64,000 bases of DNA from an uncultured delta proteobacterium (GTDB lineage Bacteria; Desulfobacterota; Binatia; UBA9968), in contig CAVWLW010000006.1 in assembly GCA_963755715.1 (NCBI GenBank), positions 1 through 64,000 on the forward strand, given 5' to 3'. Under the pieces are notes generated by a model. That model made no database searches, was not told the origin of the DNA, and worked only from the letters and a program-made list of their open reading frames with translations. This document shows, in pieces, positions 7,904 through 64,000 of this stretch. The position numbers were made by a program, and so were the translations under genes. Every line of letters begins with the position of its first letter. The stretch's first letter is position 1.

Positions 7904-7938
7904 TGAGTGGATGAACGGCACCCGCGGACGCCTGAATG

Positions 7939-7990
7939 TCTCCCGCAAAGCATGTCCTGAGCGAAGTCGAAGGAGCGCCAAGGCGCGAAG
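7939..7990. repeat. Small REP-like intergenic element (nested)
   Basis: TCCTGAGCGAAGTCGAAGGA (7955-7974) lies inside TCTCCCGCAAAG...GCGCCAAGGCGCGAAG; both resemble short palindromic intergenic repeats. Confidence 0.45.
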
Positions 7991-8092
7991 TGAACCAAAC
8001 CGTCCTTGCCACGACGCTGCGCCGTAGAATAGGATAAGACTCTGTTTCGGCCCAGGTGTTCGTGATTCGAGGAAATCTACGAGGGACGCGCG

Positions 8093-11002: not shown

Positions 11003-11112
11003 GGCGTTGTTTCCTTTCAAATTCCACGTCGGCCCTCAAAATAGACCAGCCATCGGCCCCTTTTCAAGTTTAGGGCTCTACGATATACCAACTCGACAAG
11101 GAGGAAATAAAA

Positions 11113-11547
11113 ATGGAAGCATCGACATTCAAACTGAAGACCCCGCACATCACCGGCGGGCGCAGTCATATTCCTCTTGCCCAAACTGAGAATATGACGA
11201 TCGGGCTCAATTACTATGTCCCCGGCCGAAAAAATAAACTGCACACGCACCCGGGCGAAGATCATACTTTCGTCGTGATTGACGGGCAGGCGACTTTCTA
11301 CAATAAGGATCATCAGCCGACGGTGCTTAACAAGGGCGAAGGCATCCTGCTGCCGGAAAACCATTACTACTATTTTGCCAGCACCGGTGATAAGCCGCTC
11401 GCCTTGTTCCGCGTGAGCGCGAAGAAAGGCAACAAGCCGAAGGTCGTCCGCGTCGATGCCGAGGGCAACAGGAGACAAGATGAAGAAATTGATTTTATCG
11501 TCGTCGATGGACAAGTGGTTGAGGGACAATATTGGGAGATGAAATAA
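11113..11547 (+). CDS. Cupin domain protein
   Basis: LHTHPGEDHTFVVIDGQATF; strong SD (AAGGAGG). Confidence 0.8.
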   Translation: MEASTFKLKTPHITGGRSHIPLAQTENMTIGLNYYVPGRKNKLHTHPGEDHTFVVIDGQATFYNKDHQPTVLNKGEGILLPENHYYYFASTGDKPLALFRVSAKKGNKPKVVRVDAEGNRRQDEEIDFIVVDGQVVEGQYWEMK

Positions 11548-11553
11548 GCATCG

Positions 11554-16146: not shown

Positions 16147-16205
16147 CATAATATATTTAATTATACAAAAAGTAAAATATTATTAAGTAATGGTCGACAG
16201 CCAGC

Positions 16206-16219
16206 GTTTCACGTGAAAC
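16206..16219. promoter_or_regulatory. parS centromere site
   Basis: Perfect GTTTCACGTGAAAC palindrome 1 bp before the mnmG ATG. Confidence 0.9.
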
Positions 16220-16220
16220 T

Positions 16221-18102
16221 ATGAATGAATCAAGTATCTACGACGTAATAGTTGTCGGTGCTGGTCACGCCGGCATTGAGGCCTGCCTAGCCGCGTCACG
16301 GATGGGCTGCAAGACCTTGATGCTGACTTTGAATCTCGACCACATCGGTCAGATGTCGTGTAATCCGGCGATAGGCGGCATAGGTAAGGGTCATCTCGTC
16401 AAGGAGATCGATGCTCTTGGTGGTGAAATGGGCCGAGCGATTGACGAGACTGGTATCCAGTTCCGCATGCTCAATACCAAGAAGGGTCCCGCCGTGCGCG
16501 CATCGAGGGCGCAGGCCGATAAGGCGCTTTACCGCCAGAGAATGAAAAAAGAGCTGGAGAGTTGCCCGGGTCTTTCGTTGCGTCAAGGTAGCGTGGAGTC
16601 GTTGATTGTCGAAGATGGACTGATAAGAGGCGTCGAGACACAAATCGGCGAGAAATTTCTGGGCCGCCGAGTGATCCTGACAACGGGAACTTTCCTTAAG
16701 GGGCTCATTCATGTCGGCGATCGAAATTTTTCCGCAGGACGTTCCGGAGACTTTGCGGTTCACGGCTTGAGTGAGTCATTGGTCAACTTGGGTTTTAAGG
16801 TTGGTCGATTGAAGACCGGCACTTGTCCGCGTTTAGACAGCCGCACCATCGACTATTCAAGCTTAGAGGTACAATACGGTGATGAAAACCCCGTGCCGTT
16901 TTCATTCACCGAGCGATGGGATCAAGCAACGTCAGGTGCCTTGTCATATTACTTACACCAATAACCAAACCCACGAGATCATCCGTTCGGCGTTGCATCG
17001 ATCGCCGATGTATTCGGGTGTTATAAAGAGTCGAGGACCGCGGTATTGCCCGTCGATTGAAGATAAGATCCATCGATTCGCCGATAAGAGCAGGCACCAG
17101 ATTTTTCTCGAACCCGAAGGATTAGACACGGTTGAAGTTTATCCGAACGGTCTATCGACGAGCTTGCCGTTGGATGTCCAGATCGAGATGGTCCGATCGA
17201 TTCAAGGTTTGGAAAAGGCGGAAATCATGCGCCCTGGGTATGCGATCGAGTATGACTATTTTGAGCCGACCCAGCTTTATCCGACTTTGGAAACCAAACT
17301 GGTTCGAGGGCTCTACCATGCCGGCCAAATCAATGGCACAACCGGCTACGAAGAAGCCGCGGCTCAGGGCATCATGGCCGGCATCAACGCAGTTCTCAGT
17401 ATACGTGGTGACAAGCCGTTGGTCCTTTCGCGCGAACAGGCTTACATCGGAGTGTTGATCGATGATTTGGTTACGAAGGGAACTGACAACGAACCCTATC
17501 GGATGTTTACCTCGCGGGCTGAATATCGCTTGTTGCTGCGCGAGGATAATGCCGATCTACGATTGACCGAAATCGGCCATGATATCGGCTTGGCTTCCGA
17601 TTCGCTCTGTCACGGAGTAAGTAACAAACGGCAGGCGGTTGGCGATTTAGTTTCTTACTTGGAGCAGAATCTACGCGTGCCAGACGATTGAAACCAATTC
17701 AATATTAAATCGTTCGCGTCCGTGCCGCTGCGCAATCAGGCGACCTTAGCTCAGATATTGCGCCGCCCGGAGATATCGCTTGCGCAGATCAGAATGCTGC
17801 ATCCCGATGTGCCGCGTTATTCTCAGGATGTGGATGCCCAGGCTGAAATTCAATTGAAGTATGAAGGCTACGTAACTCGACAGCTCGATATCGTCGAGAG
17901 ATTTAAGAAAATGGAAAACGCGCAATTGCCAGTTCATATCGACTATTCCAAGATCAGTGGGCTTTCACGCGAGGTCTGTGAGAAATTGTCCAGGGTGAGG
18001 CCTCAGTCCATCGGTCAGGCATCACGAATTCCGGGTATAACACCAGCAGCAATCTCTCTCCTTTCTTTTTACGTTAAGAAGAGAAGTGCATCCCACGCTT
18101 AA
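16221..18102 (+). CDS. mnmG: tRNA uridine-5-carboxymethylaminomethyl synthesis enzyme MnmG; frameshifts near 16910 and 17680
   Basis: [76 protein letters not shown] across three ORFs. Confidence 0.95.
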
Positions 18103-18123
18103 TTAGTGTTCGCAAGTTCCTCA

Positions 18124-18137
18124 GTTTCACGTGAAAC
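18124..18137. promoter_or_regulatory. parS centromere site
   Basis: Perfect GTTTCACGTGAAAC between mnmG and parA. Confidence 0.9.
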
Positions 18138-18231
18138 GGAATAATTTGCTTTTAATTCGGCTCCGTTTGTGGTAAATCTTTGATATCTTGACGATAGTTT
18201 AGTAACTATATTGAAATATAAAGAGAATATT

Positions 18232-19026
18232 GTGGGCTACGTGATTGCGATTGCGAATCAAAAAGGTGGTGTTGGGAAAACCACAACAGCGATCAACCTC
18301 GCTGCATCGTTAGCGCTCGAGTCGAAAAGGACGCTGTTGGTGGACATCGATCCTCAGGGCAATAGCACCAACGGCCTCGGCGTCGACCGATCCGTCCTGA
18401 CGTCGAGTCTTTACCATGTGCTCGATGGCTCCCGCTTCATCGGTGAAGTTTTGTGTCGGACCGAGCTGCCCCAACTACTCCTGATTCCGGCGAGCAAGGA
18501 TTTGGTCGGCGCCGAGGTTGAGTTGGTCGGCGCGGACCGCCGGGAGTATCGATTGAAAGATGCGCTTTCGACCCTCGCATCTCATTATGACTATGTCTTT
18601 CTCGACTGCCCGCCGTCTTTAGGGCTGCTGACGCTCAACGCATTGAGCGCGGCGGACCTGTTGCTGATTCCGATTCAAAGCGAATATTACGCTCTCGAAG
18701 GTCTGAGCTCTATTCTTGAAACCCTGAGCTTGGTGCAAAAGAGTTTCAATCCGGCGCTGCGGCTCGGCGGTATCGTGATCACGATGTTCGACAGTCGCAA
18801 TCGCTTATCGCATCAGGTGGTCGAAGAAATTCGCGCGCATTTCCCGGACAAGCTTTTTCGAACGATCATTCGCCGCAACGTGCGCCTGAGCGAATGCCCG
18901 AGCTACGGCAAGCCGATTTGTTTATATGACCCCGGCTCTACTGGAGCCCAGGATTATCGTGATTTAGCCAAGGAGTTGATTAACCGTGGAGAACACAATG
19001 GCGATGCAGAAAAAGGGCTTGGGTAG
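18232..19026 (+). CDS. parA: Chromosome partitioning ATPase ParA/Soj
   Basis: [36 protein letters not shown]. Confidence 0.95.
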
Positions 19027-19879
19027 AGGCCTCAGCGCTCTAATACCGAGCGCCGAGCTCAAAACGGAATCGCGAGCGGAACAGACGCCGCCGGAGATTG
19101 CTGTCGATCGAATCACACCGAGCCCATTCCAGCCGCGGCGCAGTTTCGATGAAGCAAAGATCGAAGAGCTGGCCAGCTCGATTCGCAATCAGGGGATCAT
19201 TCAACCCCTCGTCGTCCGCCCCAAGGGCGACGGCTTTGAGCTGATTGCCGGCGAACGGCGCTGGCGCGCCGCGATGAAGGCCGGCTTGAGCCGAGTGCCG
19301 GTGGTGATCCGTGAAGCCAGCGATCACGAGGCCTTGCAACTCGCTCTGGTGGAAAATCTCCAACGGGAAGATCTGAATGCCATCGAAGAAGCTAACGGTT
19401 ACCGGCGCCTGCAAGAAGAGTTTCAGTGGAGCCAGGAAGAAATGGCCGAGAGAGTCGGCAAGAGCCGCCCGGCCATTGCCAATTCTCTGCGGATGCTGTC
19501 GTTGCCCGCCGAAGTGCAGCAGGAAGTTGTCGCGGGTAATCTGCCCGCCGGTCAAGCGCGCGCTTTGCTCGGCCTACACACCGAAGCCTTGATTATTTCG
19601 GCGAGCCGCGAAGTCATCGCGAAGGGACTTTCCACGCGCGAAACAGAGAAAATGGTCCGCCTTCTGCTTATCGGACGCAAACGACGACGCCAAGTTTCCC
19701 TCATGGATCCTGATTTAAAATCGATCGTCGAAGAACTACAGCGCGCTCTAGGCACGCGCGTCCGACTGGTTCCCAAGGCGCGCACGAGCAAGGGCAAGAT
19801 CGAGATTGAATATTACACCTTGCCGGATCTCGACCGGATTATTCAATCGATTACAAAAAGCAGCACGGCCGGTGCGTAG
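18998..19879 (+). CDS. parB: Chromosome partitioning protein ParB/Spo0J
   Basis: [49 protein letters not shown]. Confidence 0.95.
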
Positions 19880-26811: not shown

Positions 26812-28232
26812 ATGTCAGTGAAAGACGCCTTAGAGATGGCGAAGAAGAATAAGGTCGAGATCGTGGATTTGAAGTTTGTCGATTTTCCCGGGTTATGGCA
26901 GCACTTTTCGATCCCGGCAGCCGAGTTATCCGCCGAGCTGTTCGAAGAAGGGTTGGGGTTTGACGGTTCCAGCATACGCGGATTTCAATCGATCAATGAA
27001 TCCGACATGATTTTGCTGCCCGACGCCGACACCGCCATGATGGACCCGTTCACCGAACACTCCACCATCAGCTTTATCTGCAACGTCCTCGACGCCATCA
27101 CCCGCGAGTCCTACACCCGAGACCCGAGATACATCACCCAGAAAGCCGAGAAGTATTTAAAGTCCACCGGCCTAGCCGACACCAGCTACTGGGGCCCCGA
27201 GATCGAGTTTTTTATCTTCGACAGCGTGCGCTTCGACCAAAACCATCATGAGGGCTACTACCATATTGACTCGGTCGAAGGCTTTTGGAACTCCGGCAAA
27301 GGCGGAGACCAGCCCAATCTCGGCAACAAGATTCAGATACAAAGAAGGCTACTTCCCCGTCCCCCCCATGGACCAGTACCAGGATCTAAGATCCGAGATG
27401 GTGTTAAATTTAGAGAAATGCGGAGTCAAGATCGAAGTCCATCACCACGAAGTCGCCACCGGCGGCCAGACTGAAATCGACATGCGCTTTGACACCATGA
27501 CCAAGATGGCCGACAAGGTGCTGACGTATAAATACGTGGTCAAGAACACCGCCAGGAAGAGAGGCAAAGTGGTCACGGTCATGCCCAAGCCCTTGTTTCA
27601 AGACAACGGCTCCGGCATGCACTGCCACCAGAGTCTGTGGAAAGCCGGGAAGAATATCTTCTACGACAAGAAAGGCTACGGGTTGATCAGCGACACCGCC
27701 CGATACTACATCGGCGGGTTGATTAAACACGCCCACGCGCTCTGCGCCTTTATCGCCCCCACGACCAACTCCTATCGAAGATTAGTCCCCGGCTACGAAG
27801 CGCCGATCAATTTAGTCTACTCGGCCAGAAACCGCAGTGCCTGCGTGCGTATACCCATGTACTCCACCAGTGAGAAGGCCAAGAGACTAGAGTTTAGGAC
27901 CCCCGATCCCAGTGCCAATCCGTACTTTGCCTTCCCCGCCATGCTGATGGCGGGACTGGATGGGATCAGAAACAAGACTGAGCCGCCCAAGCCGATCGAC
28001 AAGAACTTATACGAGCTAGAGCCCGAAGAGGCGGCCAAGGTGAAATCGATGCCGGGGTCGTTGGATCAGGCGCTCGATGCTTTGGAGAAGGATCATGAGT
28101 TTCTGTTCAGAGGGCGACGTGTTTACCAAGGACGTGATCGAGACCTGGCTGGAGTACAAGAGAAAGGCTGAGGTCGATGCCATCCGCCTGCGCCCCCATC
28201 CTTGGGAGTTCGCTCTGTACTTCGATATATAA
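26812..28232 (+). CDS. glnA: Glutamine synthetase type I (GSI-beta); frameshifts near 27330 and 28105
   Basis: [40 protein letters not shown], adenylylation loop DKNLYEL, end [13 protein letters not shown]. Confidence 0.96.
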
Positions 28233-36501: not shown

Positions 36502-37515
36502 CTAATCCCAACGTTTGTCGCCTTTCAAACGGCCGCCGGCTTTTGCCAACGCAGCTTGGACGATCGAGACGTCGACGAGTTTTTCGTAGCTTGGTTTATC
36601 ATCTGCTTTGATCGTGCCTAACTCCACTTGCTTGTTGACCGTCCACTCGACCATATCCTTTGGCAAGCCGTCGTTCACCGGCCAGGCGCCCGCGTTCGCT
36701 AAGATGTCGTACGTTTGCGCCACGGCGTCACCGTCCTGCTGCGTGTATTTTGTCGCGATTTCTACGACCCTGGCTTTGTTATTGTAAATGTAACGGTTTG
36801 CCTTGATGAGCGCCGCCATGATGTCGATGTAAAGTTGGCGATTATTCGCGATCTCTTTTTCCGGCGCGATGTAAGCGGCGTAGAGCCACTTGGGCAGCGG
36901 CTCCCAGAGATTGACCAGAATATTGAGCTCCGGTTTTTTCTTTTTTGCCACGATCGCTTGGTCGACATGAAGAATCGCCGTGTCGATTTGATTGGTCAGC
37001 AATCCCGGCACGCGGCCTTTGGTGCTCACCGGTATGTATTGCACGTCCTTGGGCGTGAGCCCGCAAGTCGCCAGCACCGCGCGGCTCATGACTTCGTTAA
37101 ACGCGCCGACTTCCTGAATGCCGATTTTTCGATCTTTGAGATCCTTGCAACTCTTGATGTCGCCTTGCACTAACATCGACTGAGATAATCGATGCGAATA
37201 GCTGCCGAGCACTTTGGTGCCGGCGCCTTTGGCCGCAGCGATGATCGCCGGATCGGAGCTCGTGCCGGTGATATCCAGGCCGCCGGCGACGCTGCCGCGC
37301 AGAGTCTGCGTGCCGCCTTCGAAGGTGACGAACTCCACGTCGATATTATTCTCGGCAAAGAAACCCAGCTCCTTGGCGACGTAGGGCGGAATATGAACCA
37401 CATTGGGAGGCGTGACGGGCACGCCAAAGACAACTTTTCGTTTGGTCTGCGCATCGGCGGAGCGCTCCAAATCCATACAGTTGCGAGCAGCCAGAATCAG
37501 CAAAGCTTTTTTCAT
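36502..37515 (-). CDS. ABC transporter substrate-binding protein (NMT1/THI5/SsuA-like)
   Basis: YVAKELGFFAENNIDVE, DLKDRKIG; the signal peptide may carry an indel. Confidence 0.88.
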   Translation of the reverse strand: MKKALLILAARNCMDLERSADAQTKRKVVFGVPVTPPNVVHIPPYVAKELGFFAENNIDVEFVTFEGGTQTLRGSVAGGLDITGTSSDPAIIAAAKGAGTKVLGSYSHRLSQSMLVQGDIKSCKDLKDRKIGIQEVGAFNEVMSRAVLATCGLTPKDVQYIPVSTKGRVPGLLTNQIDTAILHVDQAIVAKKKKPELNILVNLWEPLPKWLYAAYIAPEKEIANNRQLYIDIMAALIKANRYIYNNKARVVEIATKYTQQDGDAVAQTYDILANAGAWPVNDGLPKDMVEWTVNKQVELGTIKADDKPSYEKLVDVSIVQAALAKAGGRLKGDKRWD

Positions 37516-37529
37516 AAGACCTCCTTTCC

Positions 37530-38288
37530 CTATTCCCGTTCGTCAAAATTTCTCCACGGCGCGATGCGCCCCTCGATCCACTTGGCGAGTGACATAAGCC
37601 CAACCCCTAATATCATAACCACCACGATCGGAACAAAGAGCTTGTCGGTCTCGAAGGCATTGGCGTAGCGGACGATCATATAGCCCAAGCCTGTGACCGA
37701 TGTGTAAAATTCCGCGACGATCATGCCGACCAGTCCGCGGCCGATCGCCAGCCGAATGCCAACGACAATGAACGGCAGCGCGGATGGGATGATCAAATGG
37801 CGCCAGAGCTGGGCTTCGCTGGAGCAAAACGAGCGGGCGACTTCCTGCAGATTGCGATCGACGTCTTTGACACCTTGATAGGTGTTAATCAGAATCGGGA
37901 AGACCATGAAGAGAAAAACGATGATGACTTTCGCCGGTATCTTAAAGCCGAACCAAAGCACGATCAGTGGCACCATCGCCACCATCGGCATCGAATAAAG
38001 CGCATTGACATAAATATCCGTCGCCCACTCGACCAAGGCATAGCGCCCCATCACCACGCCAAGAAATACGCCGACGATCACCGCGAGAATCGAAGCATAA
38101 AGCAAAACCAAAAGGCTGGCCTGCATGTAGCTTTGCAATTCGCCCGAACCGGACAAGATCGATGAAACGCGCGGAGCGATCGCGAGCGGATAGGTAAACA
38201 AGATCGGATTCACGCGCCGCCCGTAATATTCCCACAGCGCCAGAACTAGGAGAAGCGAAAGCAGACGAACTTTAGCGCGCCGGCTCAT
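37530..38288 (-). CDS. ABC transporter permease (SsuC/TauC-like)
   Basis: Hydrophobic; EVARSF, LIIPSALP, IVAEF. Confidence 0.9.
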   Translation of the reverse strand: MSRRAKVRLLSLLLVLALWEYYGRRVNPILFTYPLAIAPRVSSILSGSGELQSYMQASLLVLLYASILAVIVGVFLGVVMGRYALVEWATDIYVNALYSMPMVAMVPLIVLWFGFKIPAKVIIVFLFMVFPILINTYQGVKDVDRNLQEVARSFCSSEAQLWRHLIIPSALPFIVVGIRLAIGRGLVGMIVAEFYTSVTGLGYMIVRYANAFETDKLFVPIVVVMILGVGLMSLAKWIEGRIAPWRNFDERE

Positions 38289-39069
38289 GGGCGATTTCTC
38301 CTTCGGGGTTTTGCTCTTGTTCCGATTTGAGCATTTCCCAGATAGCGTTTCTAAGCTCGATGTAGCGCGGATGAGCTCGGACCGTAAGAATTTTTCGCGG
38401 CCGTGGAATATCGATGGAAAAAATCTCTCGAATCCGGCCGGGCCGGCACGACATAACGACGATGCGGTCGCCTAAAACGATTGCTTCGTCGATGCTGTGG
38501 GTCACAAAGATCATGGTTTTCCGTTCGGTTTCTAATAGGCGCAGCAGCTCTTCCTGCATCAGTTCTCTGGTTTGTGCGTCGAGCGCGCCGAACGGTTCAT
38601 CCATGAGCAGCACCGACGGATTGATCGCCATGGCGCGCGCCAGGCCGGCGCGCTGCTGCATGCCGCCGGAAAGCTGGTGCGGGTAGGATTTTTCGAACCC
38701 CTTGAGCCCGATTAGAGTGACGTAACGCTTAACGAGCGCCGAAATATCCTCGCGCGATTTGCCTCTGAGCTCCAAGCCATAGGCAATGTTTTCTTCCAAG
38801 CGCTTCCAGGGAAAAAGACCGAAGTGTTGAAACACGACGGCGACATCAGGCCGCGGTTGGGTCACAAGCTGGCCGTCGATCAGCACCTCACCGCGGTCAC
38901 GGCTGATAAGACAATCGATGATTCGCAGTAAAGTTGTCTTGCCACAGCCGCTCGGCCCTAAAACACAGAGGCTTTCATTGGGGGCGACTTCAAGGTCGAT
39001 ATCTTGCAACGCCACCACCGCTCCGCCGCTGTAAGTCTTGGTGAGATTCCGGATGACGATTTTGTTCAT
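38272..39069 (-). CDS. ABC transporter ATP-binding protein (SsuB/TauB-like)
   Basis: GPSGCGKT, LSGGMQQR, LLMDEPFGALD, FVTH. Confidence 0.95.
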   Translation of the reverse strand: MNKIVIRNLTKTYSGGAVVALQDIDLEVAPNESLCVLGPSGCGKTTLLRIIDCLISRDRGEVLIDGQLVTQPRPDVAVVFQHFGLFPWKRLEENIAYGLELRGKSREDISALVKRYVTLIGLKGFEKSYPHQLSGGMQQRAGLARAMAINPSVLLMDEPFGALDAQTRELMQEELLRLLETERKTMIFVTHSIDEAIVLGDRIVVMSCRPGRIREIFSIDIPRPRKILTVRAHPRYIELRNAIWEMLKSEQEQNPEGEIAHEPAR

Positions 39070-39076
39070 GGAGAAA

Positions 39077-40274
39077 TTATGCTTGGGGGTTCTCAAGCAG
39101 TTTCTTGACGTTTTGCAAAAAGCGCGCGGCCATGGCGCCGTCGACGATCCGATGGTCGGCTGACAAGGTGGCGGTCATCATGGATTTGATCGCGAACATT
39201 CCTTCTTCAACAATCACTCGCGGCGCCACGCGCCCGACGGCCAGGATCGCTGCCTGGGGCGGGTTGATGATCGCGGTAAAGCTGTCGACGCCGAGCATGC
39301 CGAGATTCGACACCGTAAACGTGCCGCCCTCATAATCGAGCGGGAAGAGTTTTTTATCTTTGTGCTTTGTCGGCCAATGCTGGCGGCTCTGCGCCGCGAG
39401 CTCCGTCAGCGACAAGCGGTCGGCATTACGAATCACCGGCACCACAAGTCCTTCGTCGAGGGCGACGGCCATGCCGATGTTGATCTCCGATTGAGAGTTT
39501 GATCCCCTGCTCCGTATAAGTTGAATTGATCAACGGGAAATCTTTCAGGGCGCGCGCGCAGGCGCGTAGAATAAAGTCGTTGATCGAAGGGACGATCTCG
39601 TCACCGCGGCTCTTCCACTCGCCGCGCAGCGCGCCGACCGCGCTCATGTCGATATCCATGCTGATGTAAAAATGGGGCGCGCTCAGTTTGCTTTGCGTCA
39701 TGCGCTCGCCGGCGATGCGACGCATGGGCGTAAGCGGTATGATTTTCTCAGCTTCAGGAATCGCCGGTCTGTGCGGCAATTCGGTAGTCGACGCCCGCAG
39801 CACATCATCGGCCAAAACGCTTCCCTCCGGACCGCTGCCTTGGAGAGAAGCGAGGTTCACTCCTTTTTCTTGTGCGATTCTTTTGGCGGCCGGCGATGCG
39901 AGCACGCGGCCGCGATTCGGTGTCATTGATGCTGCGGACGGAGTCGTTTTTGGCGCCGCCGGCGGAGCGAAGATCTTTGCCTTATTCGGCGTCGGTGTTG
40001 GCTCGGGTGATTTTGCCTCGGTCTCCGGTGACTCGCCCGGCGCTAGGATCAAAGCTATTCTCTGCCCCACGGGAACTTCGTCGCCAGCCTGGGCGATCAC
40101 GTGAGCTAAAACGCCGGAGGCCGGCGCTTCGATTTCAACCGTCGCTTTGTCGGTTTCGATTTCCATGAGCGGCTCGCCTTTCGACACCGATTGGCCTTCG
40201 GCTTTGAGCCACTTGAGCAGCGTGCCGGTTTGCTGTGCGACGCCGAGCGCGGGCATGATTACGTTGGTGGGCAT
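39077..40274 (-). CDS. Dihydrolipoamide acyltransferase E2; frameshift near 39480
   Basis: Lipoyl ETDKAT, E3-binding ASPAAKRIA...GSGP, GTFTVSNLG, catalytic DHRIVDG. Confidence 0.92.
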
Positions 40275-53138: not shown

Positions 53139-54284
53139 TCAAAATCCCGCTAACTTATAAAAGCGCGCCGGATTGGTTTCCAAAATTTTTGTTTTGGCGG
53201 CCTCGCTGATATCTTTTCTTTCGCGCAATGTCTTTTCCGCGAAACGCTCCCGGTCGCCGTGCGGCATATCGGAGCCGAACAAAATTTGTCCGTCGCCCAC
53301 CAACTCGATAACTTGCGGCAAGAGTACGTCTTCGATTTCCGCGCTGAAATAAAGATTGCCCTTTTTGATGTATTCCATCGGCTCGATTTTCTGGATCGGC
53401 GCGGTGCGCGAGACGACATTGACGAGATTTTTCCCCGAGTGCTGAAAGCGGTGATGCAGTCTTTCGAGGATGAAATGCACCCATAAACAGCCGGCTTCGA
53501 GATAGACCACGCGCAGGCTCGGGAAGCGATCGAATATGCCGCCGCTCATCATCGACACCAAACCCATGAGCACCGGCATGGAAAACGCGATGACGCCGGA
53601 AGGGTAAATGTGTGTGTACAAATTATTAATCGACGGGCAAGCCCAGCCGACGTGAACCGCGAGGGGTAAGTCCGCTTCCGTCACCGCTTCGTAAAGCGGT
53701 AGCAGGCTCGGATCGTCGAGCAAACGATCTCCGGCGGTGCCTAAAATCATCATGCCCACCGCGCCCAATTTCTTCGCTTCTTTCACTTGACGCACGGCCG
53801 CCGGGACGTCGATCGAGATTGACCACGCCCACCCACTTGAGCCGCTCCTGACCCGATAGAACATCGCCGAGCCAACGATTGTAAGCGTCGCACATGGCGG
53901 TCACGTAGTCCGGATTGCAGCTCAGCGGATAGGCGAGAAAGAGCGTCGGATACAGAACCTGGAGCCAGATGTTTTCTTCGTCCATGATCTGCAATCGCTC
54001 TTTTAGGTTCGTGAGCTCCATGCTGCCGAGAGTGTCGGGCTTGCGCTGCGCGTGGCGCACCGGTTTACCTTGATAGCTGGTCGGTGTGCCGAGATTGTTG
54101 CAGCCGCGGCCGACGCGGCGCGGGAAAAGCTGCTCGTCGATCATCCAATAGGCAAGACCGTCTTCCGTGCCGGGGACCACTTGGGGGCGTTGTGCGCGGA
54201 AGGCAGGAGCAAAATATTGATCACTGAAGGTTATTGGATTTTCTTCGACATGACCGTCGGCATCGATAACGCGCACTTTGGCAT
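53139..54284 (-). CDS. Amidohydrolase_2 family protein; indels near 54280 and 53820
   Basis: VIDADGH, VLYPT, LAVHV, YLEAG, FGSDMPH. Confidence 0.88.
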
Positions 54285-54382: not shown

Positions 54383-55390
54383 TCAGCGATACAAAGCGTC
54401 GATGAAGCCGCTCGATTGCAATTGCCGCACGAAGGAATCATCAAAAAATTTTCTTGGCTCGCTGTCTTTCGCCTTGGGAATTCTGGCGGCGAGATCGTCC
54501 AAAACCGACCTCATCGCTTCGACGGTCGTGAGTGGGACTTTGAGCATGTATTTCTGCACGTCGACGTCGTACGATTCGGCCAGCGCCGCCGGATTCGCCG
54601 TCCGTAAATACTTACCCATCACTTTGAGCGCAAAAGTCTTGTCTCGTTTGGCGCGCGCGATCGCTTCGGTTTGCGCCGTTACGTAACGGCGCACCAGATC
54701 GGCATCCTCGCGGATCAAGCGGCCGCGCGTGGTGATACCGGTGAACGCATAAGGAATTCCCAGCGCGGCGACATCGAGCAATGCATGATGGCCGAGCTTC
54801 AGCGCTTGGGTAATCGCGGGATAGGAAAGGATTCCCGCTTGAATGCGATTGCCCTGCAGCGCCGCGACCATGGATTCCATGCCGCCGACCTGGACGATAG
54901 CGACGTCTTTTTCGGGCACGAGGCCGAAATGGCGCAGCGCCAGGCGCGCCCCGACGTCGATCGAAGTACCGAAGCGCGTGATGCCCAAGGTCCGGCCCTT
55001 CAGCTGCTCTGCCTTTTCGACTTCCGGCCGAGCGATCAGTTGCTGCACGAGAGATTCCAACGTCGTACCAACGACGATGACATCGGCGCCGCCGAGGGCT
55101 GCGCTCGCGGTGGTACCGCCAGAGATCTGCAAGAACTGCACTTCGCCGGCGATCAAAGCGTTCATGCCTTCAACGCCGGTGGGCGTGGCAATCACTTCCA
55201 CGTCCAGGCCATGTTTGTTGAAGATGCCAGCTTCGCGCGCGATCCAGGGCGGACACATCGATGAAGAGAGCGAAGTAAAAGCCATGCGCACTTTGCGCAA
55301 CGGCGGAGACTCAGCGGCGTAGGCGCCAGGCAGCACTGGACCTAAGACGATGAGAAAAATAGTGAACAAAACGAAAGGACGAATCTTCAT
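54383..55390 (-). CDS. Orphan ABC substrate-binding protein (NMT1/THI5-like)
   Basis: Signal peptide, WIAREAGIFNKHGLDVE, LKGRTLGITRFGT. Confidence 0.88.
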   Translation of the reverse strand: MKIRPFVLFTIFLIVLGPVLPGAYAAESPPLRKVRMAFTSLSSSMCPPWIAREAGIFNKHGLDVEVIATPTGVEGMNALIAGEVQFLQISGGTTASAALGGADVIVVGTTLESLVQQLIARPEVEKAEQLKGRTLGITRFGTSIDVGARLALRHFGLVPEKDVAIVQVGGMESMVAALQGNRIQAGILSYPAITQALKLGHHALLDVAALGIPYAFTGITTRGRLIREDADLVRRYVTAQTEAIARAKRDKTFALKVMGKYLRTANPAALAESYDVDVQKYMLKVPLTTVEAMRSVLDDLAARIPKAKDSEPRKFFDDSFVRQLQSSGFIDALYR

Positions 55391-55581
55391 TTTATCGCTA
55401 GCAAAAATTGTTTGGCGGCTTCTCGCGCCACTTTTGCTTGGCTTCACGGTGACAAGCTTCTCCGCCGTAACTTAGTCGAATATCTTTTCGCTGACAAACA
55501 GATACGGCAGAGGAAAAGCAGATGAGGAGCAAGATTGAGCGGCCTTACTCGAAGCTCAAAGACGGAAAGCCTTCTCAGGCC

Positions 55582-56844
55582 TCAGGCCGCGGGAGGAATA
55601 GCGATCTTTTGTCCGATATAAATGTAATCGGGGTTGACGATAACTTTCCGGTTAGCTTCGTAAATCTTTGGCCACTTCAACGGGCTGCCATAAAACCATT
55701 CGGCCAAATCGCTGAGGGTATCACCTGCCTTCACGGCGTAGTCCACTGGCTCAACCGGCAATCTCGGCGGCTTGTCAGCGACCACGATCGGCTTGGTTTT
55801 GTACAGACGATCAATAAATCCAGAATTATCCAGTTCTTTGACAAATGACAGGTCGACAAACTGCTCCGGCCGAGCTGTCTTTGCTTCGGGCTCCCTTCCA
55901 CCTACTTCTCGAAGGATGGCGTCAATTCCTTTCAGCGTCGGATACGGCTTCGCGGGGACAAGAGCAAGTCCGATATCCGCGTGTATCTCCTTCAAAGCCT
56001 CGGCATTGTTGGTCTTGAGATACTTTGCCAGAACGGTTAGCGACTCCTGCCGGTTGGTTTTGTAGTAATGAATACCTTCCACATAGGCTTTCATGACATT
56101 GCGGACAAGGTCAGGCTGGGATTTGATCAATGCCCGAGTCGTTGCTAATCCCGTGTGCTGATACTCGAGGCCGAGCATTTTAAGGTTGGCTAGAACGCGA
56201 AAGCCCTTTGTTTTCGCATGGAGACTCTGAGGAACTTCCAGCATCACCCCTTGGACCTTTCCTGTCTCAAGCGCGGCGAACCGGTCCGGCTGCGTCCCGA
56301 TCTCAAGAATTTTTACATCCTTATCCGGGACTAAACCATACTTATCGAGGGCGAAGCGAATCGCAAAGTCCGAAGAACTCCCATACCGGCTCACCGCCAG
56401 GGCCTTGCCCTTCAATTGATCCGGTCGTTGGACGGTCTTGTCAACGATGAATTGATAATTCATCGTGTTCAGGATCCCGGCGATCATCACGATGTCCGCG
56501 CCCTTGAGGTTACTCTGGATAACCCCAGCGCCTGCCATCTGTGCAAAGGCCACGTCGCCTGACGCGAGGGTTTGTGCGGCCCGGCTTCCTCCTTCCACAA
56601 GCACGAGCTGCACGTTCAAGCCATACTTGCTGAAGAAACCCTTTTCGTAGGTCACCCACAAAGGCGCCATGTTACCCGAAATAGAGCTATAAGCTATGAT
56701 AACCTTCGACAAAGGGCGCTCCGCCGTTTTTTCCGCAGGGTTGGCCAGAGCAGGAGTGAGGAGTCCTATTGCCCAAAGAAAAATGACAATGCCAACCCGC
56801 ACGTCTCGCATTCTCCGCCGGGTAAAGTCCGATTGCGAAAACAT
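55582..56844 (-). CDS. NMT1/THI5-like substrate-binding protein fused to a C-terminal LysM domain
   Basis: LWVTYEKGFFSKYGLNV, LKGKALAVSRYGS; LysM YAVKAGDTLSDLAEWFYG...IYEAN...NPDYIYIGQKIAIP. Confidence 0.88.
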   Translation of the reverse strand: MFSQSDFTRRRMRDVRVGIVIFLWAIGLLTPALANPAEKTAERPLSKVIIAYSSISGNMAPLWVTYEKGFFSKYGLNVQLVLVEGGSRAAQTLASGDVAFAQMAGAGVIQSNLKGADIVMIAGILNTMNYQFIVDKTVQRPDQLKGKALAVSRYGSSSDFAIRFALDKYGLVPDKDVKILEIGTQPDRFAALETGKVQGVMLEVPQSLHAKTKGFRVLANLKMLGLEYQHTGLATTRALIKSQPDLVRNVMKAYVEGIHYYKTNRQESLTVLAKYLKTNNAEALKEIHADIGLALVPAKPYPTLKGIDAILREVGGREPEAKTARPEQFVDLSFVKELDNSGFIDRLYKTKPIVVADKPPRLPVEPVDYAVKAGDTLSDLAEWFYGSPLKWPKIYEANRKVIVNPDYIYIGQKIAIPPAA

Positions 56845-56883
56845 AACTCCGCTAAGTCGGCTGTGTGCGCATCTGCCGCGATC

Positions 56884-57627
56884 TCATCTCGCGACTCTAT
56901 TCTCAACTGGGGTGTTCAGTTCGGCCGCGCTTGCGTCAGTCTTGTCGGTCCGCTCGCCGATGGGCGCAATAATGGCGCGCACGAGAAAAACAGAGAGAGC
57001 GACAGTAACGAGAAGCACGAGGACGATTAAGCCAACAAAGCGAAGCAGGACTGTGTTGATCTCTGTTTTCACGCCCTCTGCCCATATTCCCAGATGGGCT
57101 GTCCCTAGTTGTCCTTCAAGAACCGGTACACGGGTCTCGTATACGGTGTTTCCTTGCAATGTCACGACCCGCGTGCCGATTTGTTTTCGCTCGTCCGGCG
57201 TCAACGTTCGCATAAGCTCTGGAGGGAACGGCCTCATGCTATGGCCAACGATCTGACCGTTAGTATCTTCGATAAAGGCGTATGCCACTCCCTCCAATCG
57301 GGCGTACTTTGTGAGCAACGCGTAAAGGTCCAGAATATTTTTGCCTATGACAGGGCCTGCGGCTGCGTCACTTAAGTTAGTTGCTATGGCCAATGCCCGC
57401 TGATCAATTTCGCTCCGCAGCGCGCGGTCTATGAATTGATTCGCAATGACTATAAGAAGAAGCCCAAAAGCGAGCATCACAGCTGCAACAGTCCCAGTAA
57501 TTTTCCATGCGAGGCGCGAAGATAGTCGTGGGAGCGCGATTTCCTGATCGGTGCTACTGCGAAAGACCGCTGCTCTTGAGTCACTATTTTTTGCTGCTTG
57601 GATTAGGGCATCATAAATTTTGCTCAT
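56884..57627 (-). CDS. Two-TM membrane protein with a periplasmic Cache/PDC-like domain and a degenerate HAMP
   Basis: TM1 (VAAVMLAFGLLLIVIA), VAYAFIEDTNGQIVGHS...YETRVPV...GTAHLGI, TM2, then IIAPI...LNTPV and stop. Confidence 0.7.
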   Translation of the reverse strand: MSKIYDALIQAAKNSDSRAAVFRSSTDQEIALPRLSSRLAWKITGTVAAVMLAFGLLLIVIANQFIDRALRSEIDQRALAIATNLSDAAAGPVIGKNILDLYALLTKYARLEGVAYAFIEDTNGQIVGHSMRPFPPELMRTLTPDERKQIGTRVVTLQGNTVYETRVPVLEGQLGTAHLGIWAEGVKTEINTVLLRFVGLIVLVLLVTVALSVFLVRAIIAPIGERTDKTDASAAELNTPVENRVAR

Positions 57628-57641
57628 ATCCTCTCCGCTGG

Positions 57642-59240
57642 CTAATAAGTCGTATCTGCTTTACCTAATGGGTCGACACCGTTTGCCCTGCTGACGAAGG
57701 CGAGCCACTGCTTGCCCAGTCCGGCCTCCCAGGTTTGCATCGCCTCTTTAAGATTTTTCAACTGGACAATCTCGACCCGCTGCAGCAAAAGATCGTCCGA
57801 AACCCTGCTCGGTGTGATCGCCACTTGATATCCCTCGTTGCCCAAGACGCGGGCGTGTACCCGGGCGTCCGCTCCGTTGTAAAAAGATGCCACGATCAAA
57901 TGATACGAACCATCGGATTGTTCCCTTAACAATGTCTCCTCCGAGAGCGGCACGAGTAAGAGTTCCTGTCCCGGCATGACCCGGTTAAGGTTCTGGATCT
58001 TCGGGTTGAATTCTTTGATGAGGTCCATACCGAGAACCGCACTGGGGCCGTACGTTTCGCCGGCAATTTTTTGGATGGTAGAGCCGGGCTGAATGGTAAT
58101 GCGTTGGTACTGCCGTTTAGAGCCAACTTCTGCACGGGGCTTTTGCGGTAAGGCTTGTGGCGGTAAGGCTTGTGATTGACTGACCGGCACAACCCAATTG
58201 AGATTGTGCCTCAAGGAGTCCAGGCCTCTTCCAGCAATGCTGAACACCGTTCGGGAATCGATAACCGATGCTATGCCGATCAGAAGGAACATCACGAAGA
58301 AGGTGCCAGCGCCGGCTCTCATCAGACGTGTCGCGAAGTGCCGAGGAAGTTCATTGGGTACCTGAGGCAGGGAGGTTTCCTCTTTGACCTTCGGCGCCAA
58401 CAGAGCGGGAACGTCGCGTATCTCGGTGACAGTAGGGTCCAGCTCGAGGTCGCGCGCAACTCGGTCGATTTTATCCGCGTAAACACGTTGTTGCGACTCG
58501 GCGTAGGCGCTAATTAGCGCATTATCGCAGATGATGTTTATGACGCGGGGAATTCCTTTCGAATAATAGGCGATCCGTTCAACCGCGTCAGGATGAAACA
58601 GATCCTTGCCCTCATAGCCGGCAGCCACGAGCCGAGAATCAATGTAAGGACGTACTTCGTTATCCATAAGAGGGTTGAGGCGGCATTGCACGGCGACGCG
58701 CTGCTTAAGTTGTCGGAGATGGGGTTGAGCCAGTTTTGCGTGAAGCTCAGGTTGACCCATCAATACAATTTGGATCAGTTTCTCCTGATCGGTTTCCAGA
58801 TTCGAGAGCAGTCTTAAGTTTTCCAAAACCTCGTCGCTCAGGTTTTGAGCTTCGTCGATTAGCATCGTAACTGTGTGTCCCTGATTGAGCTGCTTGATCA
58901 AATAATCATTCAGTTCCAGCAACATCGCTACTTTGCTTTGATCTTTCGATGTTAAGCCCAGGTCCTGAAGTGTGAGCTGGAGTAATTCAGGAAAGCTTAA
59001 ACAGCTATTAAATACAAAGACCGAATGGACGGTGTCCGCCAAGTTGCGCAATAGTCTACGGAGCAAGGTGGTTTTTCCTGTCCCGACCTCGCCGGTAATG
59101 ACAATGAAACCCTTTTTGGCCTCGATCCCATAGCGCAGGGCAGCAAACGCTTCTAGGTAGAGAGGATTGGTATAGAAAAAACGGGGATCAGGGGTAACGC
59201 TAAAGGGTGATTCTCGGAATCCAAAGTAGCTATTGTACAT
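57642..59240 (-). CDS. ExeA/GspA-family AAA ATPase with TM, LysM and SPOR domains
   Basis: MYNSYFGFRESPFSVTPDPRFFY, GEVGTGKT, IDEAQNL, GIPRVINIICDNAL; LysM IQPGSTIQKIA...NP...PGQEL; SPOR YHLIVASF. Confidence 0.88.
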   Translation of the reverse strand: MYNSYFGFRESPFSVTPDPRFFYTNPLYLEAFAALRYGIEAKKGFIVITGEVGTGKTTLLRRLLRNLADTVHSVFVFNSCLSFPELLQLTLQDLGLTSKDQSKVAMLLELNDYLIKQLNQGHTVTMLIDEAQNLSDEVLENLRLLSNLETDQEKLIQIVLMGQPELHAKLAQPHLRQLKQRVAVQCRLNPLMDNEVRPYIDSRLVAAGYEGKDLFHPDAVERIAYYSKGIPRVINIICDNALISAYAESQQRVYADKIDRVARDLELDPTVTEIRDVPALLAPKVKEETSLPQVPNELPRHFATRLMRAGAGTFFVMFLLIGIASVIDSRTVFSIAGRGLDSLRHNLNWVVPVSQSQALPPQALPQKPRAEVGSKRQYQRITIQPGSTIQKIAGETYGPSAVLGMDLIKEFNPKIQNLNRVMPGQELLLVPLSEETLLREQSDGSYHLIVASFYNGADARVHARVLGNEGYQVAITPSRVSDDLLLQRVEIVQLKNLKEAMQTWEAGLGKQWLAFVSRANGVDPLGKADTTY

Positions 59241-59411
59241 TGATTCCAGCCTTCCTCTTGTTAACGTAGCTGTGTGTTTAGCGTCTGCCTGAACCTGTAA
59301 ACCGAGCCGCACAACCTCATCGGCTTTATTTCACGGCGTCATGTTCAAGAGATTCTTTGATGAAAAGGAGATTGACTGCGCAAGGTCGTAGTAAACCGTG
59401 GCTTTTCTCGA

Positions 59412-59426
59412 GCAAGGCAAATGCCA
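59412..59426 (-). promoter_or_regulatory. sigma54 promoter of the ExeA-like operon
   Basis: Minus strand TGGCATTTGCCTTGC. Confidence 0.65.
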
Positions 59427-59715
59427 ACGGGACAAGTTGCTGATTTCTAATAGGTAGAGTCTTAAAAGCTGGAGGCATTTTCAAACGCGAGCCTAGCGGG
59501 CTTTATCATACACTAGGATAGGTTTTGGCAGGGGACTCATGACTCGGCTGGAAATAGTCTTAACTGAATTTAGGACTTCCGTCCTCTCTCTCTTTGGGAA
59601 ATGGTCGCCTAAGGATGAGTCCCTCCTATACGATTTAATTTCGCTGTTTGTCAAACAGCCGCGAATGAATCGGCCAAACCAGCAATAAAATAAAAGACTA
59701 GAACGAGATTTCAGA

Positions 59716-60720
59716 TCACTGCCAGCCGTAGAAGCGCTTGGCATTCTCGCCTAAGACTTTGGCCTTGGCTGACTCCGAGATGTCCTTGCGGCCGCGGATG
59801 GTCGATACCACGTGCGGGAAGATGCCATCCCAATGCGGATAGTCGGAGGCAAAGACGATCTTGTCCTCGCCGATGCGTTCGATGACGTAGGGCAAAGTTT
59901 CCTCTTCCGGTTCCATGGCGAAGAACCAATTGCCGTGCTTGACGTATTCGCTGGGCTTGTTTTTACAGAGCGGCGCTTCGATCTTGCCGCGTTTTTCCCA
60001 TTCTTCATCCATCCGTTCCATCCAGTACGGCACCCAGCCCACGCCGCATTCGAGAAACGCGATGCGCAGCTTGGGAAAGCGCTCGGCAACGCCGCCGTAC
60101 ATCAGGCCGGCGAACTGGATAAAAGTTTCCACCGGCCGCCCTATGGTGTGCATGAAGATAAAACTATCGAAGCGGACTTCTCCCGCCGGTCCCTCACGCC
60201 GATTGTGCACGCACAGCGGCACGTTGAGGCGCTCAAGCTCTTCATAGAGCGGCCAGAAGGTTTGCGCGCCCAAGTGCTCCTTCATGCCTTGAGTGGCCAC
60301 GGCGATTGACGCCAAGCCGAGCTTGGTGACGGCGCGATTAGCCTCCGCGACCGCCGCTTTCGGGTCCTGAAGCGGCACCAACGCAACGCCCTTCAGACGC
60401 GGGCTCTGACTGCATACGTCTGCGATAAAATCGTTGTAGGCGCGCGCGTAAGCGATCGCGTAATCGCGCTCGATCATGCTGTTGACTGAGAAGCTGCTGG
60501 TGGGAAAAAGCACCGAGAGATCAATCCCCTCTTTATCCATGTCGGCCAGGCGCGTCGGCAGATCATTTTTTTCCAAACCACCGAGCGATCCGCCCATGTT
60601 GGTATCCATTCCGTCGGAAGGCAAAAGACCGCCGGTGCGTTTTGAATAGGGCTCCGGCAGCCGTTTTCGTATGTCGATATCTTTTTCGACAATGTGACCG
60701 TCGGCATCGATCGTGTTCAT
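59716..60720 (-). CDS. Amidohydrolase_2 family protein
   Basis: TIDADGH, SVLFPT, LCVH, FLECG, FASDYPHWD. Confidence 0.92.
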   Translation of the reverse strand: MNTIDADGHIVEKDIDIRKRLPEPYSKRTGGLLPSDGMDTNMGGSLGGLEKNDLPTRLADMDKEGIDLSVLFPTSSFSVNSMIERDYAIAYARAYNDFIADVCSQSPRLKGVALVPLQDPKAAVAEANRAVTKLGLASIAVATQGMKEHLGAQTFWPLYEELERLNVPLCVHNRREGPAGEVRFDSFIFMHTIGRPVETFIQFAGLMYGGVAERFPKLRIAFLECGVGWVPYWMERMDEEWEKRGKIEAPLCKNKPSEYVKHGNWFFAMEPEEETLPYVIERIGEDKIVFASDYPHWDGIFPHVVSTIRGRKDISESAKAKVLGENAKRFYGWQ

Positions 60721-63049: not shown

Positions 63050-63086
63050 AAATTTCCTACGTGGCCAATTTTTACTTAATCAAAAC

Positions 63087-63101
63087 GCAATGCGCATGCC
63101 A
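63087..63101 (-). promoter_or_regulatory. sigma54 promoter of the M48 gene
   Basis: Minus strand TGGCATGCGCATTGC. Confidence 0.75.
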
Positions 63102-63184: not shown

Positions 63185-64000
63185 TTACTCTTTCGAGTAC
63201 AAGGCGAGTTTAGCGTTCAATGTTTTGGGGGTGATGCCGAGCAACTGGGCCGCCTGAGTCTTGTTTCCGCCGGTAGCGCCGAGCGCGCGTTCGATGGCTT
63301 GACGTTCGGCTTCGGCCAGAGACATGGGCGCAAGATCGGACGGCTCATCGACGACGTTTGTCAGACAATACTGCTGAAAATCTTTTGCCGTGAGATCGGG
63401 GCCGGGGGCGAGCACGGTGAGGCGTTCCATGGCGTTGCGCAACTCGCGAACGTTGCCCGGCCAGCTGTGCGCTTGCAGTGCTGCGGCCAAGTCACCCCCC
63501 CAGGGCGAGACCGTACGTTGATACTTCGCCGCAAAAGTCTCGAGAAAGTAGCCGGCCAGCAGTGTGATGTCTTCGCCGCGTTCACGCAGCGGCGGCAACT
63601 CCAGGTGAAAAACATTCAATCGATAAAAAAGATCCTGGCGTAGCTTGCCCTCTTTAACCGCGCTCGCCGGTTGGCGGTTGGTGGCGGCGACGACCCGAAC
63701 CGATACGGGCAAACTCTTATTGCCGCCGATGCGGCGGATTTGCCCTTCTTCAAGCACGCGCAGAAACTTGGGTTGGATCTCCAGTGCCATCTCGGTAATT
63801 TCGTCTAGCAAAAGCGTGCCGCCGTCGGCTTGTTCAAAGCAACCCAGGTGGCGGTCGACGGCGCTGGTGAACGCGCCTTTTTCATGGCCAAAGAGCTCGC
63901 TCTCCATCAACGTCGGTGAAATCGCCGCACAGTTGAGCGCAAGAAAATTGCCCTCGCGCCGCGCCGAGAGATCGTGCAGCGTCTGCGCCACCAGTTCTTT
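63185..64000 (-). CDS. sigma54-dependent transcriptional activator (bEBP, Fis HTH); 5' end outside the window
   Basis: [57 protein letters not shown]. Confidence 0.95.

Follow-up and report, generated by a model that had tools for sequence, protein, structure and literature searches.

The stretch of DNA analysed here (the window: 64,000 nucleotides of contig CAVWLW010000006.1, from an uncultured delta proteobacterium of the lineage Binatia) contains three adjacent genes between positions 55582 and 59426 that may encode the parts of an envelope-spanning signalling unit. All three lie on the minus strand. In the direction of transcription they code for a GspA/ExeA-family AAA+ ATPase of 532 residues (57642..59240), a receptor-like protein of 247 residues with two transmembrane (TM) segments and a Cache domain (56884..57627), and a secreted solute-binding protein of 420 residues that ends in a LysM domain (55582..56844). 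The genes are spaced by 14 bp and 39 bp, and both gaps contain a GGAG-type ribosome-binding site. All three members of this triad are intact, unlike several broken housekeeping genes in the window. Upstream of the ATPase gene lies a sigma54-type -24/-12 element, TGGCATTTGCCTTGCT (59411..59426, minus strand). The leader between this element and the coding region is long; an Rfam scan of 55400-59800 for a riboswitch returned 0 matches at E values up to 1.

The longest open reading frame (ORF) of the ATPase gene (57642..59312, minus strand) encodes 556 residues from a GTG start. We assign the start to the ATG at 59240 because a database protein of 532 residues (P0121, 100% identity to the window ATPase, MYNSYFGF...) and all orthologues begin there. 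The cytoplasmic core of the protein is an AAA_22 domain (PF13401, E = 1.1e-27; residues 66-194 of the 556-residue ORF, 58731..59117). By far the best NCBIfam match is TIGR03015, the XrtA/PEP-CTERM-associated ATPase, which aligns over model positions 1-267 of 269 with 299.9 bits, under the cut-off of 324.5; the orthologues score 234.9-298.6 bits, all under the same cut-off. The Walker A (GEVGTGKT), Walker B (DEAQ) and G.PR..N..CDN motifs are invariant in 12 of 12 aligned relatives. A sequence search of the PDB matched the ATPase only to MuB (4.6e-9). The triad is not a known defence system, since PADLOC shows only P-loop-level similarity for the ATPase (best match 1.1e-5) and no match for the other two proteins.

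The core is followed by a single TM segment (hydropathy peak 2.24; residues 333-351 of the 556-residue ORF, 58260..58316) and 200 predicted periplasmic residues. We distinguish two domains in this tail, one related to LysM (57954..58106) and one to SPOR (57714..57929). Pfam scores LysM in the window copy with 15.7 bits (E = 0.015) against a cut-off of 20.9, and gives no SPOR match. One orthologue (locus L008, see below) reaches 21.6 bits for SPOR with the cut-off at 21, and precomputed annotation assigns SPOR (PF05036) to many of the 263 homologues found for the C-terminal region. An AF2 model of the ATPase C-terminus (8 orthologues) has a pLDDT of ~90 over residues 45-180. In Foldseek the first domain of this model resembles the CBM50 domain 7r1l (TM-score 0.86, root-mean-square deviation 1.3 over 49 columns) and the LysM domain 6q40, and the second resembles the SPOR domain of RlpA (6i05, TM-score 0.71, deviation 2.4 over 70 columns). 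These matches have a probability of 1.00, yet their E values lie at 0.025-0.13 and none reaches 0.001. Because the Pfam scores are below threshold and the Foldseek E values are weak, we refer to the domains as LysM-like and SPOR-like. PG_binding_1 (PF01471) is not among the best 25 of 33 Pfam families matched by the full ATPase, and does not match the C-terminal 200 residues alone. We propose that the LysM-like and SPOR-like domains fix the ATPase to peptidoglycan.

The second protein matches sCache_3_2 (PF17203; 1.9e-8, 34.9 bits against a cut-off of 28.4), and its two TM segments flank this domain. No other Pfam family is matched, GspB/T2SSB included, and a PDB search by sequence with the Cache profile found nothing below E 0.34. 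A structural model with a pLDDT of 71.8 gave 23 Foldseek matches at E values up to 0.001. The best of these is the sensor domain of WalK/YycG (1e-7 to 5e-5), followed by KinD, LuxQ, CitA and DcuS. The predicted PDC/Cache fold between two TM segments is supported by the model together with its matches to WalK, KinD and CitA. At the cytoplasmic N-terminus the protein carries the sequence MSxIYDAL (MSKIYDAL... in the window copy), of which M1, S2, Y5, A7 and L8 are invariant in 18 of 18 sequences. The short tail after the second TM segment aligns with the first helix and the connector of the HAMP domain in longer homologues. HAMP domains are found in the Cache proteins of the related loci L009 and L012-L015, and in fusions of the ATPase with the Cache protein.

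A profile search of 1.84 billion representative sequences with the Cache protein returned 2264 matches at E ≤ 0.001, 76 of them at E ≤ 1e-30, and 623 homologues are of similar length. In the atlas, both the Cache protein clusters and those with NMT1+LysM architecture consist mostly of Binatota. From 150 listed representatives we scanned 20 against Pfam, chosen by length and not at random. Eleven of these hand-picked proteins are histidine kinases and one is a GGDEF protein, all with the same Cache-HAMP N-terminal part; three have only PAS or GAF after Cache-HAMP, and two have additional N-terminal TM segments. The set also includes an ATPase fusion (P0270), a protein that starts with MSKIYDAL and continues with fused PATAN and Cache domains (P0262), and a Cache-HAMP protein that continues into NMT1-LysM (P0278). 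Since the distant relatives are sensor kinases and the fold matches WalK, KinD, LuxQ and CitA, the Cache module points to a sensor ancestry. By descent, to judge from these relatives, the Cache(-HAMP) protein is a receptor, one that would have lost its output.

The third protein consists of a signal peptide, an NMT1 domain (1.1e-26, 94.5 bits against a cut-off of 20.5) and a C-terminal LysM domain (55594-55740; 2.6e-7, 30.9 bits against 20.9). Its SsuA_fam score of 92.3 is under the cut-off of 163.5. The closest solved relatives are TauA (5e-8), SsuA and ThiY, and the LysM domain resembles those of Kbp and TsaP. LysM is present in 10 of 10 aligned orthologues (mean column identity 62% in this alignment of 10), and according to the atlas clusters the NMT1+LysM fusion is specific to the clade of the triad. 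No permease or ABC ATPase gene adjoins the triad in the window, and the same holds for the 11 loci that have the LysM form. A paralogous NMT1 protein that lacks LysM (54383..55447, minus strand; 36% identity to the LysM form) is encoded 134 bp downstream of the triad. No terminator-like site was found between the two genes, and this paralogue is kept in L002 only. A complex prediction for residues 38-355 of the binding protein and the periplasmic residues 60-207 of the Cache protein, each with its own alignment, gave an ipSAE of 0.00/0.00 and a mark of 0.32; made without controls, it weighs neither way.

An initial annotation of the same DNA had named most of these parts. The three co-directional genes with their gaps of 14 and 39 bp are confirmed by the ORF calls; the periplasmic Cache-like protein with two TM segments is borne out by the sCache_3_2 score and the topology, and the NMT1-type binding protein with LysM by two domains above the Pfam cut-off. 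For the proposed ExeA-type ATPase with TM, LysM and SPOR, the AAA_22 core and the TM segment stand as described. Its LysM and SPOR domains are supported by structure and by orthologues, but are below the Pfam threshold in the window copy.

A scan of one genome per species yielded 15 related loci (L001-L015). They are labelled as Candidatus Binatia or 'Deltaproteobacteria', with one Pyrinomonadaceae and one Syntrophobacteraceae, and L001 is 96-99% identical to the window. The initial annotation had made its proposal depend on synteny in related genomes. This synteny holds: nine of the 15 loci (L001, L002, L004, L005, L007, L009, L012, L013 and L014) contain all three genes, and the order persists down to ~43-50% identity. 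ATPase and Cache genes are adjacent or fused in 11 loci, and L006 adds a twelfth before its contig ends. Cache and binding-protein genes are adjacent in 11 of the 15, of which 13 show sequence 3' of the Cache gene. Two loci, L010 and L015, have the Cache and binding-protein genes without the ATPase gene, and two others, L006 and L011, are cut by the contig end.

The genes flanking the triad vary among the 14 loci of our neighbourhood scan, from which L001 was left out because it is nearly identical to the window. All-versus-all blastp of the locus ORFs revealed no fourth conserved gene beyond the triad and its antisense shadows, and the flanks of the 14 loci contain no secretin. Surface-machine genes adjoin the triad genes in two of them. 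In L009 this is a TadA-like ATPase (355 bits, cut-off 373). In L015 the order is an RfaH-like antiterminator, Cache-HAMP, the binding protein, and then Wza-like, Wzc-like and GDP-mannose dehydratase genes. A NarL/LuxR-type regulator is encoded upstream in L005 and L006. Constant company of type II secretion system (T2SS) or exopolysaccharide (EPS) genes, which the initial annotation had also named as an argument against its proposal, is thus not what we found: among the 14 loci, one has a TadA-like ATPase and one lies in a Wza/Wzc EPS operon. The window itself was correctly described as devoid of such genes. A greedy ORF list comprises 62 ORFs, and Pfam scans of the 59 besides the triad found no T2SS, secretin, pilus or polysaccharide-export genes, and no exosortase, PEP-CTERM protein or EPS gene.

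The loci fall into two types. Type A, represented by the window and L001-L009, pairs an ATPase that has a TM segment and a putative wall-binding tail with a Cache protein that begins with MSxIYDAL. Type B (L012, L014) combines a soluble ATPase, with a helical domain at its end, and a Cache protein in which HAMP is complete and this N-terminal tail is missing. Both types occur within one metagenome-assembled genome (MAG), as L007 (A) with L014 (B) and likewise as L004 (A) with L012 (B). The contig of L003 is binned as Pyrinomonadaceae, yet its genes are 66-69% identical to those of Binatia. This locus also encodes a separate LysM protein upstream, a terminase-nuclease-like ORF, and an FtsN-like SPOR protein downstream (1-555 minus, 5024-6061 plus, 7945-8727 plus).

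Fusions join the products of neighbouring triad genes. All 16 of 16 longer Cache homologues (641-847 residues), obtained from several sources, consist of AAA_22, sCache_3_2 and HAMP, and P0270 is a further, more divergent protein of the same make-up. In L013 a type B ATPase and Cache-HAMP form one protein of 761 residues (6450-8735). The linker in L013 and in P0241-P0256 is built of acidic repeats of ~30 residues (…ETETNETE.KMGDRSEAPE…), and the protein lengths step by 30 residues (641, 671, 701, 731, 761) because the number of repeat copies varies. P0278, with 725 residues, joins the second and third proteins: it contains Cache, HAMP, a signal-anchor-like segment as third TM, NMT1 and LysM, in a topologically coherent order.

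All-versus-all blastp (1e-8 to 1e-17) and alignment also disclosed a helical module of ~75 residues that is not in Pfam and for which a PDB search by sequence gave nothing below E 0.19. It forms the C-terminus of the soluble ATPases of L012 (2562-2789) and L014 (7740-7970), and of a DUF4388/PATAN protein encoded directly 5' of Cache-HAMP in L010 (1251-1484). Two tandem copies end the Wzc-like kinase of L015 (14499-14741 and 14829-15086), and one copy stands just before the first TM segment of the L013 fusion (7782-8039). In each of these five loci, which are of type B with readable flanks, a neighbour or fusion partner of Cache-HAMP has the module, whatever its enzyme. By analogy, this distribution suggests that the module is docking-like and marks interchangeable partners of Cache-HAMP.

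The -24/-12 element claimed for this operon has the exact spacing (TGGCAT-N5-TTGCT) and lies ~186 nt 5' of the ATPase ATG. It shows the GG-N10-GC core, the TGGCA and TTGC hexamers and the conserved position of a sigma54 promoter. Such patterns are not rarer in the window than by chance (2 matches with at most 1 mismatch against 1.84 expected), and our call is made because of conservation across loci instead. Five of 10 other loci tested have the element before the ATPase gene, within a conserved block of the upstream alignment and with different spacer bases: L002 at -183, L001 and L003 at -187, L007 at -119 and L008 at -114. Upstream of the ATPase in L005, L006, L012, L013 and L014 it was not found with up to 2 mismatches. 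Exact spacing and recurrence speak for the claim, and we propose that transcription of the triad starts at this predicted sigma54 promoter.

A second element of this kind, TGGCAT-N5-TTGCG (63086-63101, minus strand), lies 5' of an M48 peptidase gene and is kept in L002 (2740-2755). It is placed between the gene of a sigma54 activator and the gene set of the M48 peptidase and a glycine-zipper lipoprotein, which suggests that sigma54 governs a small regulon of envelope proteins encoded here. The activator is NtrC-type and cut by the end of the window (63185..64000, minus strand; Sigma54_activat 1.5e-52). Its full-length orthologue in L002 comprises REC, AAA and HTH domains and has a histidine kinase gene upstream. 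We consider this protein a candidate regulator of both local -24/-12 promoters, and infer its link to the triad. By its score, 380.2 against 502.6, it does not count as a PEP-CTERM-box regulator.

From the domains, the gene order, the fusions and the promoter element we arrive at a reading to which we give an even chance: the three genes would encode one envelope-spanning signalling unit, composed of a Cache receptor, a tethered binding protein and a GspA-like ATPase as effector. Its contacts, its direction of signalling, its ligand and its output are what we infer. In this unit the Cache protein would serve as a receptor that no longer has an output of its own, with the NMT1-type binding protein, tethered to peptidoglycan through LysM, as its most likely periplasmic co-receptor. 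The ATPase, itself fixed to the wall, would be the cytoplasmic partner and effector of this receptor. The ligand state would be passed across the membrane to the ATPase, and nucleotide-dependent assembly of the ATPase would control a cell-surface machine encoded elsewhere, for which polysaccharide export or pili are our best guesses. We think of surface structures because of the PATAN and Wzc partners and the two informative neighbourhoods, L009 and L015. The predicted partnership between ATPase and Cache protein is well supported by gene order and fusion; the link between Cache and binding protein is supported by gene order (11 of 15 loci) and one fusion. In type A, coupling could proceed through the N-terminal tail, through TM contacts, or by both proteins being fixed to the wall. 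The initial annotation had suggested an ExeAB-like scaffold repurposed for sensing or wall remodelling. Sensing has gained from the ATPase-Cache-HAMP fusions, the sensor-kinase relatives and the docking-like module, and wall remodelling has found no direct support.

Several observations weigh against a single signalling unit. Pfam finds no complete HAMP domain in the window Cache protein, and a hidden Markov model of six copies detects the ~75-residue module neither in the window nor in L001-L009 or L011. As full HAMP and module are both missing, coupling in the window subtype would rest on the invariant N-terminal tail and on analogy. The binding-protein gene is missing from L003 and L008, which have ATPase and Cache genes, where sequence is available, and L011 has none downstream of the Cache gene. 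The ATPase fusions are all ~47% identical to the query and belong to one clade, so that we count the 16 proteins as one event seen repeatedly. The joining of the second and third genes in P0278 is seen in one representative and may be natural or a read-through artefact. All 15 loci come from MAG contigs, and their flanks do not exceed 8 kb. Finally, we know of no signalling role for any GspA-family ATPase.

The ATPase could instead act with its partner as a structural assembly factor of the GspAB type, not as part of a sensor. The ATPase, anchored to the wall, would then work with its membrane partner to get a secretin or Wza-like channel, encoded elsewhere, through the peptidoglycan; the Cache fold would replace the GspB homology region, and the LysM binding protein would be an added piece of scaffold. 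This explanation does justice to the GspA-like architecture (AAA+, one TM segment, periplasmic wall-binding region) with a bitopic partner encoded next to it, and to the TadA-like ATPase of L009 and the Wza and Wzc genes of L015. Natural A-B fusions are reported for GspAB (PMC9239104, PMC4098917), and fusions are seen here too. We nevertheless regard this explanation as unlikely, since the window scan found no secretin, T2SS or pilus gene and just 2 of the 14 scanned loci contain any such genes. No GspB/T2SSB match was obtained for the partner, which is related to sensor kinases with HAMP, and the type B ATPase is soluble, without a wall-binding part. That TIGR03015 is the best family of the ATPase (299.9 bits in the window, 235-299 bits among orthologues) raises the thought that the protein is this lineage's XrtA-associated ATPase, and the triad a detached PEP-CTERM/EPS accessory that acts only in exopolysaccharide production. 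The position of Cache-HAMP and LysM binding protein in L015, between the RfaH-like antiterminator and Wza, Wzc and GDP-mannose dehydratase, would agree with this, as would the NarL/LuxR-type regulator upstream in L005 and L006. However, every TIGR03015 score is under the cut-off of 324.5, the window has no exosortase, PEP-CTERM or EPS gene, of the 14 scanned loci 13 are free of EPS genes, and L015 itself lacks the ATPase. We find such a restricted role quite improbable.

It is also conceivable that the adjacency of the binding protein is meaningless, and that it is an ordinary ABC uptake protein for a sulfonate- or pyrimidine-like solute. It does belong to the NMT1/SsuA family, as kin of TauA, SsuA and ThiY, and the window encodes several other NMT1 proteins, one of them accompanied by permease and ATPase genes (36502-39096). 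The LysM form has no such genes adjoining it in the window or in the 11 loci that contain it, its LysM fusion is clade-specific, and its adjacency to Cache persists down to 43% identity, even where another partner replaces the ATPase (L010, L015). We consider coincidence to be very improbable.

The reading that we favour, a signalling unit of receptor, tethered binding protein and ATPase, is probably previously undescribed; the literature searched, a limited collection, contained no description of this gene set. In a broader form, which we put forward tentatively and regard as possible but on balance doubtful, Binatia and relatives hold an unrecognised class of modular envelope receptors, in which an output-less Cache(-HAMP) protein reads a peptidoglycan-tethered binding protein and recruits interchangeable effectors. 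These effectors would be a GspA-like AAA+ ATPase, a PATAN protein or a Wzc-type tyrosine kinase, recruited by the ~75-residue docking module or, in type A, by the MSxIYDAL tail. With an assembly ATPase as output, and not a kinase or cyclase, such receptors would couple chemical sensing close to the wall to the building of surface structures. Signals could even travel inside out, as in LapD, if the state of the ATPase determined what is held by the Cache domain on the periplasmic side. To our knowledge, the one established task of GspA/ExeA-type ATPases is to help secretins assemble, and their PEP-CTERM-associated relatives have no assigned role. If the ATPase is indeed wired to a ligand receptor, the whole family gains a testable function as a regulated assembly switch, and the recent finding of output-less Cache-HAMP receptors with docked partner enzymes extends to new partner types. 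It is unusual for a solute-binding protein to be tethered to peptidoglycan, which suggests that sensing is spatially fixed at the wall. The triad also marks a lineage, Candidatus Binatia, whose members are uncultured and abundant in soil.

Among the surroundings of the triad, the same-strand upstream genes encode an amidohydrolase, three small ORFs of which one is the glycine-zipper lipoprotein, the M48 peptidase and the NtrC-type activator. Further away, mnmE, mnmG, parA and parB stand in a row (14770-19879, plus strand), an arrangement that is usual near a chromosomal replication origin. In this row mnmG/gidA (16221-18102, plus) is broken into three ORFs by one frameshift and an in-frame TGA at 17689-17691. 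An E2 acyltransferase gene (39077-40274, minus) is split over two overlapping ORFs, an amidohydrolase gene (53139-54276, minus) is split as well and intact in L002 (381 residues), and glnA (27248-28171, plus) lacks the N-terminal part. These broken housekeeping genes are either assembly errors or pseudogenes. Five long ORFs (406-672 residues) have no Pfam match at E ≤ 1e-5 (3161-6377 plus, 7016-8971 minus, 11017-12303 minus, 12954-14444 plus).

One of the closest documented systems is GspA/ExeA with GspB/ExeB, which assembles T2SS secretins in Aeromonas and Vibrio. The two systems share a cytoplasmic AAA_22 ATPase with one TM segment and a periplasmic peptidoglycan-binding region, here a putative one of LysM-like and SPOR-like domains, as well as a small inner-membrane partner encoded adjacent and natural fusions of both (PMC4098917, PMC9239104). 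The periplasmic part of GspA is described there as PG_binding_1 (PF01471) plus a cysteine-peptidase-like domain (PMC9239104), in place of which the window ATPase has its LysM-like and SPOR-like domains. The partner is a Cache(-HAMP) receptor with two TM segments and not a GspB homology-region protein, secretin and T2SS genes are absent nearby, and a LysM-tethered binding protein is added. A second parallel is an output-less Cache_heme-HAMP receptor that, according to a 2026 preprint, binds a Ser/Thr kinase encoded by a neighbouring gene via two short C-terminal helical bundles on HAMP (bioRxiv 10.64898/2026.05.25.727664). Common to both are a periplasmic Cache domain, TM segments and HAMP without an enzyme of its own (full HAMP in type B, not in the window), an adjacent partner gene, and C-terminal helical modules, here on the type B partner and in two tandem copies on the Wzc-like protein. 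Our proteins differ by having no heme motif and by partners that are an AAA+ ATPase, PATAN protein or BY-kinase and not PknB-like; the window pair has neither full HAMP nor module, and the modules are likened by arrangement, not by sequence.

Toward the XrtA/PEP-CTERM ATPases (TIGR03015) the likeness is that of the best-scoring family for the core. The score is under the cut-off, exosortase and EPS context is missing in the window, and the tail of TM segment, LysM-like and SPOR-like domains lies outside the model. LuxP-LuxQ is a binding-protein-dependent sensor. As here, a periplasmic solute-binding protein is encoded beside a PDC/Cache sensor, and the LuxQ domain is among the fold matches (3c38, E = 3.7e-4); the binding protein of the triad is, by prediction, tethered to peptidoglycan through LysM, and its sensor has no kinase. 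Among the structural matches to the Cache model, the sensor domain of WalK (YycG) ranks first (9a5d at 1e-7; also 5is1 and 4ywz), and both proteins have a cell-wall context. WalK differs in being a full histidine kinase, and its sequence identity to our receptor is just 11-19%.

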